Assembly: GCA_027036755.1 (NCBI GenBank)
Contig: JALWDV010000417.1
Span: 1 to 37,268 of the forward strand
Length of the DNA stretch: 37,268 nt
Origin: Anaerolineae bacterium
GTDB lineage: Bacteria; Chloroflexota; Anaerolineae; J102
Direction of reading: 5' to 3'
The number at the start of each line of letters is the position of its first letter. The first letter of the stretch is position 1. A program made the position numbers and the translations under genes. The notes under the pieces were generated by a model. The model was not told the DNA's origin and did not search any database. It saw only the letters and a program-made list of their open reading frames with translations. Shown piece after piece: positions 23,786 through 24,376 of this stretch.

Positions 23786-23931
23786 CCAGAACTCCAGAGG
23801 GCCAGAACCCCAGAACCCCAGAGGGTCAGAGGGCCAGAGGGCCAGAAAGGCAGAAGGCCAGAGGCCCAGAGAGCCAGAAGGCCAGAGGCCAGAGCCACAG
23901 AGGTCAGAGGCCAGAGGCCAGAGGTACAGTA
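23786..23931 (+). repeat. CCAGANNN octad array (13 units in perfect 8-nt register) that decays into CCAGAGG-type heptads
   Basis: The CCAGA core recurs at 23786, 23794, 23802 and every 8 nt up to 23882. Spacing then becomes +7/+8 up to ~23925. The array begins 2 nt after the fnlB stop. Confidence 0.9.
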
Positions 23932-23946
23932 AGGAGGACAAGTCTC

Positions 23947-24339
23947 GTGGAAAAGCGTAAGCAAATTAGATCGGCGAAGGATTTGGTTGTTTATCAGAAG
24001 GCGTATCAACTTGCGATGATGATCTATGAGGTCAGCAAATCTTTTCCTCCGGAAGAACGATACGCCCTGACCAGCCAGATACGCCGATCCTCTCGATCTG
24101 TCTGTCTCAACTTGCGCGAAGCCTGGGCCAAGCGACGTTACCAGGCCCATTTCATCAGCAAACTCACCGACTGTGATGGCGAAAACAGTGAAACGGATTC
24201 GTCACTGGACTTTGCGCATGATTGTGGCTACATTTCTGACGAACAACACGTACAACTAACCTCCCTCAGCAACGAGGTTGGCAAAATGCTCGGCTCCATG
24301 ATCAACCATCCCGATTCATTTCTCATCTCCCGTCGCTGA
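23947..24339 (+). CDS. Four-helix-bundle protein (23S rRNA intervening-sequence protein / Avd-like family)
   Basis: 130 aa. DLVVYQKAYQLAMMIYEVSKSFPPEERYALTSQIRRSSRSVCLNLREAWAKRRYQAHFISKL is the hallmark of this family. The start is GTG 23947, with AAGGAGG at 23931-23937. Confidence 0.85.
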   Translation: MEKRKQIRSAKDLVVYQKAYQLAMMIYEVSKSFPPEERYALTSQIRRSSRSVCLNLREAWAKRRYQAHFISKLTDCDGENSETDSSLDFAHDCGYISDEQHVQLTSLSNEVGKMLGSMINHPDSFLISRR

Positions 24340-24345
24340 CGACCA

Positions 24346-24376
24346 CTGACATCTGACATCTGACCTCTGGAGTTCT
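24346..24376 (-). repeat. Inverted short array of the same repeat family (CTGACAT CTGACAT CTGACCT CTGGAGT), ending in the right-hand inverted repeat
   Basis: Heptads lie at 24346, 24353, 24360 and 24367. cctctggagttc (24364-24375) is the exact reverse complement of gaactccagagg (23789-23800). Confidence 0.85.

Follow-up and report, generated by a model that had tools for sequence, protein, structure and literature searches.

Contig JALWDV010000417.1 of an Anaerolineae bacterium (Chloroflexota; assembly GCA_027036755.1), analysed from position 1 to 37,268 of its forward strand (hereafter the window), carries an operon of fnlA-, fnlB- and fnlC-like genes in which fnlB is separated from fnlC by a gene for a four-helix-bundle (4HB) protein, itself set between two opposed arrays of short tandem repeats. 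Our favoured reading, which we give a probability of about 0.62, is that this unit is a cassette of the type found as intervening sequences (IVSs) in 23S rRNA genes, here lodged in a protein-coding operon, and that its arrays would act both in the transcript and in recombination. The components of this reading differ in strength. The anatomical and family-level statement, that an IVS-type 4HB cassette bounded by arrays resides in the fnl operon, is very probably right; the proposal that the arrays are recombination junctions accounting for spread and mosaicism is evenly poised, and the proposal that they pair in the transcript and undergo RNase III processing that affects translation of fnlC has slightly less than even odds.

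The cassette fills exactly the 594 nt between the fnlB stop and the fnlC start (23785-24378), all three fnl genes lying on the forward strand, and consists of a forward array, a Shine-Dalgarno sequence, the 4HB open reading frame (ORF) and a reverse array, in that order; neither promoter-like nor terminator-like sites were found within it. The gap, an inverted repeat, the two arrays and a 4HB gene with a strong ribosome-binding site had been described in the original prediction, made from the sequence alone, and all were recovered in place. The locus comprises the following features, with the supporting evidence in brackets:

21581-22618, + strand: fnlA-like gene for a UDP-GlcNAc 4,6-dehydratase/5-epimerase, first gene of the host operon (profile matches).
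22615-23784, + strand: fnlB-like gene for a reductase of 389 aa, with two in-frame repeat-array insertions (NF047837, Pfam, homolog alignment).
23159-23215, + strand: array 1 within the fnlB coding sequence, CAGARGN units, at the inter-domain linker of FnlB (Tandem Repeats Finder, TRF; alignment).
23577-23620, + strand: array 2 within the fnlB coding sequence, six CCAGAGG units, in a hairpin loop of the FnlB cupin domain (TRF, alignment).
23786-23929, + strand: forward intergenic array of about 18 CCAGARGN units, starting 2 nt past the fnlB stop (TRF, regular-expression scan).
23788-23800, + strand: left arm of a perfect 13-nt inverted repeat, AGAACTCCAGAGG (inverted-repeat search; closing helix in folds).
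23930-23937, + strand: Shine-Dalgarno sequence of the 4HB gene, TAAGGAGG, 9 nt before its GTG (read from the sequence).
23947-24339, + strand: 4HB gene, 130 aa, GTG start, PF05635/TIGR02436 (profile matches).
24337-24376, - strand: reverse array (…CTGACATCTGACATCTGACCTCTGG…), beginning at the 4HB stop codon (TRF, inverted-repeat search).
24364-24376, - strand: right arm of the 13-nt inverted repeat, holding GGAG (inverted-repeat search).
24379-25497, + strand: fnlC-like gene for a UDP-GlcNAc 2-epimerase, downstream of the cassette (TIGR00236, Pfam).

By TRF, the left array consists of 16.9 copies of period 8 with 76% matches (23794-23924), and the regular-expression scan counts 18 CAGAR units in 23787-23924; the scan detected no further array of the CAGARGN kind in the rest of the window. 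The right array is reported by TRF as 3.4 copies of CTGACAT (24346-24369) and pairs, in the inverted-repeat search, with 23891-23925 through 35-nt arms that are 77% complementary. With head-to-tail units of 7-8 nt (TRF) and a length that varies in L001, L004-L007 and L011, these are tandem heptamer arrays. The forward repeat (CAGAGGT)n is free of stop codons in all frames and its complement yields TGA in every frame within 21 nt, which explains both that only forward arrays occur inside ORFs and that the stop codon of the 4HB gene is the first TGA of the reverse array.

The 4HB protein belongs to Pfam PF05635 (E = 1.8e-32; 112.2 bits, cutoff 33.8) and to TIGR02436 (102.7 bits, cutoff 24), and is similar in sequence to PDB entries 2gsc (3.8e-10), a four-helix bundle that forms pentamers, and 2rld (2e-9). 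No defence-gene match was found for it with PADLOC, nor phage-borne relatives of its gene in a scan of viral_contigs, and an Rfam search of 22500-24700 retrieved no rRNA match and no RNA family apart from two chance-level matches.

Protein relatives number in the thousands at 72-89% identity, and eighty metagenome loci were fetched which, together with earlier loci, gave 77 usable copies of the gene. A forward CNGA-type array lies upstream of the 4HB gene in 62 of 71 loci, and in the wrong orientation in one of the 71; a reverse array lies downstream in 50 of 73 (wrong orientation in 4/73), and its start coincides with the 4HB stop codon in about half of the loci. The preceding ORF stops 0-12 nt before the forward array in 25 of 48 loci and is overlapped by the array in 8, and the next ORF starts at most 16 nt from the reverse array in 25 of 38. 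Array density is 13 times higher within 300 nt of the 4HB ORF than more than 600 nt away on the same contigs. Genomic contexts are diverse and include the fnlB/fnlC junction, a position after fnlA, clusters of toxin-antitoxin genes, a recurrent gene pair of soil bacteria and a tRNA neighbour, among others; for instance, the gene for P0003 (89% identical) lies among toxin-antitoxin genes and has the same arrays. Together with the distant relatives described below, these counts show that, as a rule, both this 4HB subfamily and more distant PF05635 genes have the array-4HB-array build.

Within a locus, the two arrays are better matched than arrays taken from different loci. The units co-vary within loci (GTCAGGA/TGACTCC, CAGATAT/TGATGTC, CAGACGT/TGACGTC), and the upstream flank shares more k-mers with the reverse complement of the downstream flank of its own locus than with those of other loci, a result equalled in 0 of 10,000 permutations. 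The longest perfect inverted match between the two flanks has a median of 12 nt in 58 non-redundant loci, versus 10 nt for mismatched partners.

In a sub-group of loci (L101, L111, L133, L144, L168 and L172) the forward array lies further upstream and is followed by TTGACA-N17-TAAGCT directly before the ATG, which, judging from the motif, looks like a promoter of their own with a leaderless start.

A tblastn search of plasmid records retrieved 33 relatives at 27-60% identity, mostly cyanobacterial, of which eleven were inspected. Eight are operon or intergenic copies flanked by opposed complementary arrays, whose motifs are either different or of the same kind, and include those of Nostoc punctiforme, two other Nostoc strains, Leptolyngbya, Anabaena sp. 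90, Geminocystis and Gemmatirosa. The paired motifs differ among hosts: GCAGGGG in Nostoc, GGTGACA in Anabaena sp. 90, GGGAAAA in Geminocystis, GGGCAGGA in Gemmatirosa and, outside the plasmid set, GTAACGA in a Fibrobacter metagenome-assembled genome (MAG; L015). The ninth positive, on plasmid AZO_p2 of Azospirillum lipoferum 4B (L176), is an unannotated 4HB ORF inside a 23S rRNA gene (Rfam LSU_rRNA_bacteria, 2141 bits). CAGAGGA/CGGATGA heptamers precede this ORF and their complement follows it, giving a closing helix of about 26 bp and a fold z-score of -9.7. This case is decisive, in that a genuine 23S rRNA IVS shares the array-4HB-array architecture. In the Coxiella IVS, too, the S23p ORF is preceded by tandem GACAGAT heptamers whose number varies, and RNase III cuts the 28-bp terminal stem of this element at the first repeat (PMC4990558). 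From the Azospirillum and Coxiella elements it follows that the unit in the window, though located in an mRNA, has the build of a genuine IVS and even its repeat motif.

The likeness to the 23S rRNA IVSs of Coxiella burnetii, Leptospira and Azospirillum is extensive: a PF05635 ORF in the loop of a long terminal helix, CAGAnnn-type heptamers before the ORF (CCAGAGG in the window), a repeat number that varies between strains, and an element flush with host sequence on both sides. In the predicted folds, complementary termini enclose the ORF in the window and also in L004, L005, L009, L011 and L015. Unlike the rRNA elements, inserted in helix 9, 25 or 45 of the 23S molecule, the unit in the window has protein-coding genes as its host, in a polycistronic mRNA instead of helix 45; the window helix is a predicted one, shorter and imperfect (13 bp perfect, 38 pairs in total). 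Also, purifying selection acts on the window ORF, which has a strong Shine-Dalgarno sequence; that of Coxiella is in decay and is probably not translated. The original prediction had mentioned both rRNA IVSs and the Avd protein of diversity-generating retroelements (DGRs) as contexts of the family; both were apt, the IVS link proving much closer than it had supposed. Our search of the literature, which was not exhaustive, found no paper linking PF05635 genes to flanking heptamer arrays outside the Coxiella IVS.

The evidence above suggests that the IVS build is not specific to rRNA, and that rRNA IVSs are one subset of a much wider class of cassettes, the same unit sitting flush between cistrons of ordinary operons in many phyla, among them polysaccharide and cas operons. 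In Anabaena sp. 90 (pANA02, L180) and Pseudanabaena galeata (pPg_01, L181), the 4HB gene and its heptamer arrays lie between cas6 and cas4; the 4HB family was once proposed to be cas-associated (PMC3936711), and such cassettes may explain that proposal.

Matches of the 4HB protein to the PHROG family 'Avd protein of DGR' (8e-21) and to Pfam bAvd (1.3e-14) bring up a different origin, as a remnant or satellite of a DGR in which the 4HB protein would be Avd and the variable arrays the products of mutagenic retrohoming. The Avd of DGRs (bAvd, PDB 4DWL, as cited in PMC10053308) does belong to a homologous four-helix-bundle fold family; one of the homologs was named bAvd by its source, and array 1 in fnlB is hypervariable between strains. 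However, the Avd equivalog model NF033474 gives 45.6 bits, below its cutoff of 80, with TIGR02436 far above its own. A reverse transcriptase and a template/variable repeat pair, which the original prediction had proposed to look for, were both missing from the window (Pfam scan of ORFs for the former), and no reverse transcriptase was found in the flanks of the loci examined. The window also has no DGR target gene, opposed flanking arrays are not a described feature of DGRs, and the strain differences correspond to a recombination patch of the type seen in L005 and not to adenine-specific changes. Lacking reverse transcriptase and repeat pair, and with the Avd model below cutoff, a DGR component was rejected, and descent from one appears extremely unlikely.

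The immediate relatives show how the fnlB-fnlC junction was occupied. Proteins identical to the window 4HB protein occur in three metagenome contigs of the same species, and those of 86% (P0002; L004-L007, three GenBank MAGs) and 82% identity (P0022; L011) are also encoded between fnlB and fnlC. L004-L007 and L011 have forward arrays upstream, reverse arrays downstream and both arrays in fnlB, with different unit sequences and copy numbers; for this reason FnlB measures 389, 390, 418, 432 or 437 aa. Elsewhere the junction is mostly empty: when species-representative genomes were scanned with FnlC, the majority of 80 fnl loci, drawn from many phyla, had fnlB abutting fnlC or overlapping it with nothing inserted. 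The original prediction was thus correct in regarding the 4HB gene as a discrete insert, and the comparison of junctions that it had called for gives mostly empty ones, the filled ones of sister species keeping opposed arrays without its pair of terminal repeats. An end of the form CTCTGGAG(G)TTCT+ATG is common to the filled junctions of the window, L011 and L015, and none of the empty junctions examined has this end or a CTCTGGAGTTCT motif.

L015 has at the same junction a different 4HB gene (2980-3500; 30% identity), flanked by AT-rich heptamers (GTGATAA/GTAACGA) with their complement downstream, which represents either replacement of the cassette or convergence. The L015 cassette ends nearly as in the window, with CCTGGAGGTTCT+ATG.

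The original prediction had gone further, taking a perfect 12-bp inverted repeat as the terminal inverted repeats (TIRs) of a mobile cassette. In such a case the unit would be transposable in the manner of a miniature inverted-repeat transposable element (MITE), its 12/13-bp repeat being recognised by a transposase acting in trans. The 12-mer gaactccagagg (23789-23800) does have its exact complement at 24364-24375, the repeat extending to 13 nt, so that a perfect inverted repeat marks both edges; it occurs once per strand in the 37 kb, where 0.12 occurrences are expected at up to one mismatch. Empty junctions being the norm and close relatives occurring in many contexts would also suit a transposon. 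However, the pair is not conserved in sister-species copies at the same junction, since the left arm is missing from L011, which retains the right one (CCTCTGGAGTTCT + ATG), and the right arm is missing from L005, which retains the left one. Thirteen nucleotides are also what two opposed arrays produce as a by-product, given the medians above for matched and even for mismatched partners, and one-mismatch copies of the supposed terminus lie within arrays, at 23161 and 23813. The right arm doubles as a ribosome-binding site, because its GGAG (24369-24372) stands at Shine-Dalgarno distance from the fnlC ATG and is likely the Shine-Dalgarno sequence of this gene. Lastly, there is no target-site duplication (the flanks read TGAGCC at the left edge and CAATG at the right, that is, GCC and CA, without a direct repeat), and the 37 kb contain no transposase. 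The unconserved repeat pair and the lack of target duplication and transposase largely refute a TIR transposon or MITE, which we rejected and consider very unlikely. The idea that these genes travel as mobile cassettes thus holds over evolutionary time, the unit being present in many unrelated contexts, but not for a TIR-bounded unit. The Correia elements of Neisseria offer a comparison: they are intergenic inserts whose ends pair in the mRNA and form an RNase III site that alters the expression of neighbouring genes, with defined TIRs, a TA target duplication and no gene of their own. In contrast, the unit in the window has repeat arrays in place of TIRs, and a conserved ORF.

The cassette has been at the fnlB-fnlC junction since before the sister lineages split; it is old and has co-diverged with the operon. 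With respect to L005, synonymous divergence (dS) of the 4HB gene is 0.72, which is in the range of the fnl genes (fnlA 0.70, fnlB 0.38, fnlC 0.28), and with respect to L011 the dS values of 4HB, fnlA, fnlB and fnlC are all at least 1.2 or saturated. Among copies of the 4HB gene, the ratio of nonsynonymous to synonymous divergence (dN/dS) is 0.04-0.12, with synonymous sites saturated in most pairs, indicating strong purifying selection; the subfamily is old, and not merely recently spread.

Arrays also occur inside fnlB, which the original prediction had not noted. From an alignment with 14 FnlB homologs, arrays 1 and 2 are in-frame insertions in surface loops, the canonical FnlB lacking them. 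Array 1 opens with CAGAACTCCAGA, as does the intergenic array, and is 87% identical over 53 nt to 23811-23863 of the latter.

The same FnlB loops gain arrays repeatedly: besides the window and L013, array 2 is present in L015 and in a WOR-3 MAG (L046). In a beta-proteobacterial MAG (L073), two arrays of 21-nt units (1979-2222) lie at the inter-domain linker, in the same loop as array 1.

Where strains have recombined, the tracts end at arrays or beside them. L001 equals the window over 7.6 kb except for a 14%-divergent, L005-type patch at 23155-23532, with breakpoints in 23085-23155, just before the start of array 1, and in 23532-23599, a stretch that reaches into array 2. Conversely, L002 and L003 have flanks that are about 10-14% divergent and no differences in 23543-24395, an identical block whose left edge lies about 34 nt before array 2 and whose right edge lies 19 nt beyond the reverse array. 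All four tract ends are thus at most some 35 nt from an array, so that arrays coincide with the edges of mosaic alleles in surface-polysaccharide loci.

Identical in four strains, this block of 853 nt takes in the 3' end of fnlB together with array 2, the whole cassette and 17 nt at the start of fnlC, and it resembles the outcome of a recent sweep by recombination. Two metagenomes (L009, 1860-2060, and L010) share a 4HB gene and its downstream flank, with different upstream contexts; in L009 the forward array directly follows a truncated fragment of a DegT-like gene, suggesting that the array was the site of a rearrangement.

Variable arrays could alternatively make this a simple-sequence contingency locus, where slippage-prone arrays tune or phase-vary the polysaccharide genes (fnlB by frameshifts within the coding sequence, fnlC and the 4HB gene by the length of untranslated regions) and where the 4HB gene would be a small host gene of the ordinary kind. 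In favour of this, the product of the locus is a surface polysaccharide, strains and species differ in the length and sequence of their arrays, and a 7-nt unit shifts the reading frame. Moreover, Flavobacterium difficile KDG-16 (L055) has long solo arrays (AAGAGCC/AAGTGAA) of one polarity in every intergenic gap of its fnl operon, at 1445-1622, 3190-3411, 4627-4798 and 6456-6692, and no 4HB gene. Heptamer arrays are known to be over-represented in intergenic regions, as with the cyanobacterial tandem heptanucleotides, the TAACTGA arrays of Beggiatoa and cyanobacteria, and the GGGAATC arrays of Xanthomonas, which form 70-75 convergent pairs per genome (PMC4692102, PMC4679880). Those in the window resemble them in that length differs between relatives, plus and minus arrays form convergent pairs, and arrays occur in ORFs only in the stop-free orientation; unlike them, they bracket a PF05635 gene with fixed polarity, and a text search of PMC4692102 and PMC4679880 found no link to PF05635. 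Nevertheless, all the array-bearing fnlB alleles observed are in frame, four strains show no difference in array 2 or in the intergenic array, and slippage accounts neither for the strict polarity (62/71 vs 1/71), nor for the match between the two arrays, nor for a build identical to that of rRNA IVSs. We consider a contingency locus improbable.

Turning to how an IVS-type cassette might work in this operon, folding of 23770-24395 closes the cassette, in both the minimum free energy (MFE) and the centroid structures, with a helix of 23788-23800 and 24364-24376 and with additional pairs between the arrays, so that 38 pairs span the ORF. The array helix spans the ORF in all six MFE folds (78 pairs in L005, 65 in L004, 43 in L009, 39 in L011 and the 38 of the window, plus 34 in L015, there with a different motif). 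In the window, the predicted helix starts 4 nt past the fnlB stop, ends 2 nt before the fnlC ATG and includes the GGAG. The cassette would be co-transcribed with fnlABC, and its arrays would pair in the transcript as a long imperfect helix that loops out the 4HB ORF and brings the fnlB stop together with the Shine-Dalgarno sequence and AUG of fnlC. By analogy with rRNA IVSs, this helix may be a substrate of RNase III; it would also mask the Shine-Dalgarno sequence of fnlC, whose translation might then need opening of the helix, for instance when ribosomes terminate at the fnlB stop, which lies 4 nt upstream of the left arm. In DNA, the arrays might serve as recombination junctions through which the cassette and adjacent segments are exchanged and copied; stop-free forward arrays could then settle inside ORFs, the two loop insertions of fnlB being possible examples. 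The 4HB protein may bind the array helix, or a strand, of its own element, a guess based on the analogy with Avd, a nucleic-acid-binding pentamer.

Part of this could be dispensed with if only the DNA level mattered, that is, if the opposed arrays were kept alike by gene conversion or template switching, as sites of recombination or cruciform formation, the RNA helix and the RNase III step being irrelevant in copies residing in mRNAs. In the best ungapped array-to-array alignments, mismatches of the G·U type (81) are not in excess over those of the A·C type (86), and the complementarity could therefore stem from concerted evolution of DNA instead of selection on an RNA helix; the position of tract ends at or near arrays, and array 1 being a copy of part of the intergenic array, point in the same direction. 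Against this, RNase III has been proven to cut the homologous helix of rRNA IVSs (PMC4990558), the arrays would be transcribed with the operon, as no terminator was found, and the helix spans the ORF in every predicted fold. A purely DNA-level explanation seems to us doubtful.

Together with the missing G·U excess, several results weigh against the favoured reading of an IVS-type cassette with a role in RNA and in recombination. On the RNA side, the window element folds only modestly better than its shuffled versions do (z = -1.95), its perfect helix of 13 bp is short for RNase III, and RNAduplex separates matched from mismatched flanks by a small residual, -3.07 kcal/mol (128 of 10,000 permutations, p ~0.013); the effect is small because most loci share a CAGAGGT core, the k-mer test being clearer. 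As for the kinship with IVSs, none of about 170 subfamily loci matches 23S rRNA, the Azospirillum IVS protein is only 33% identical to that of the window, and among the eleven plasmid relatives two have arrays of the same polarity on both sides and one has no arrays. The old, co-diverging cassette gives no sign of current mobility at the locus. Finally, arrays exist without the cassette, as in L055 and in L013, a Chloroflexota MAG and the closest named relative, which has both arrays in fnlB, and a neighbour-joining tree of FnlB does not group the array-bearing proteins, which are not monophyletic. From L013 and this tree it follows that arrays can spread independently of the 4HB gene; the tree also led us to reject a single origin of the arrays in fnlB.

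A broader possibility, which we think rather unlikely, is that PF05635 proteins and heptamer arrays form the two halves of a single system that propagates itself, where a pentameric 4HB protein would recognise its own array helix or strand and promote copying or recombination of array-bounded segments, perhaps with a cellular reverse transcriptase, as its homolog Avd does. If so, rRNA IVSs, operon cassettes, solo and convergent heptamer arrays and the in-frame arrays of FnlB would share one mechanism, which would also cover the cyanobacterial tandem heptamers and the GGGAATC pairs of Xanthomonas. The origin of rRNA IVSs and the role of their 4HB ORF are questions standing since the early 1990s, and the excess of heptamer arrays in some bacterial genomes is a second standing puzzle; an IVS build that is not confined to rRNA would turn these two separate puzzles into one testable system, through RNase III processing, binding of 4HB proteins to arrays, and array-driven recombination.

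The genes of the host operon were assigned from profile matches. The top match of the fnlA-like ORF is TIGR04130 (FnlA), with 533.6 bits, below the cutoff of 730, and it has a Pfam Polysacc_synt_2 domain (2e-100). The fnlB-like ORF matches NCBIfam NF047837 (WbcJ/FnlB-type reductase) with 404 bits, under the 500-bit cutoff, as well as Pfam Epimerase and Polysacc_synt_C; in-frame arrays add 20-60 residues to FnlB and push its score under the family cutoff, which is of consequence for annotation. The fnlC-like ORF matches TIGR00236 (wecB-type 2-epimerase) with 238 bits, over the cutoff of 210, and Pfam Epimerase_2 (4e-94). Directly upstream of fnlA there is a low-GC island (17000-21500; 36-37% versus about 58-60% elsewhere) with a Wzx-type flippase, two ORFs without Pfam match and a multi-pass membrane ORF, which is probably a horizontally acquired serotype-specific module.

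Elsewhere in the window, two tandem hicB/hicA pairs lie between polysaccharide genes (ca. 15663-16803), their 3' ends carrying a repeat of 61 nt (92%; 16082 and 16750), and a TumE-type toxin gene with its partner (28244-29151; PADLOC candidate PDC-M44A/B) lies inside the polysaccharide cluster. The TumE-type pair is bracketed by a 41-nt direct repeat (85%; 28263-28303 and 29162-29202) that duplicates the 5' end of the downstream gene for a DegT aminotransferase. The gene for a TPR protein (2683-5037) contains tandem units of 576 nt (3682-4973), within which two stretches of 300 nt (3837-4136 and 4413-4712) are 99% identical, pointing to a very recent internal duplication. Lastly, the region 32313-32905 includes a 460-nt non-coding stretch in which cctgacaggttc forms an inverted repeat (32372 and 32461) and TTGACAA is repeated three times (32766-32791); next, an octamer-like array, ACGACCNN (32830-32905), lies at the 5' end of an NTP_transf_5 ORF.

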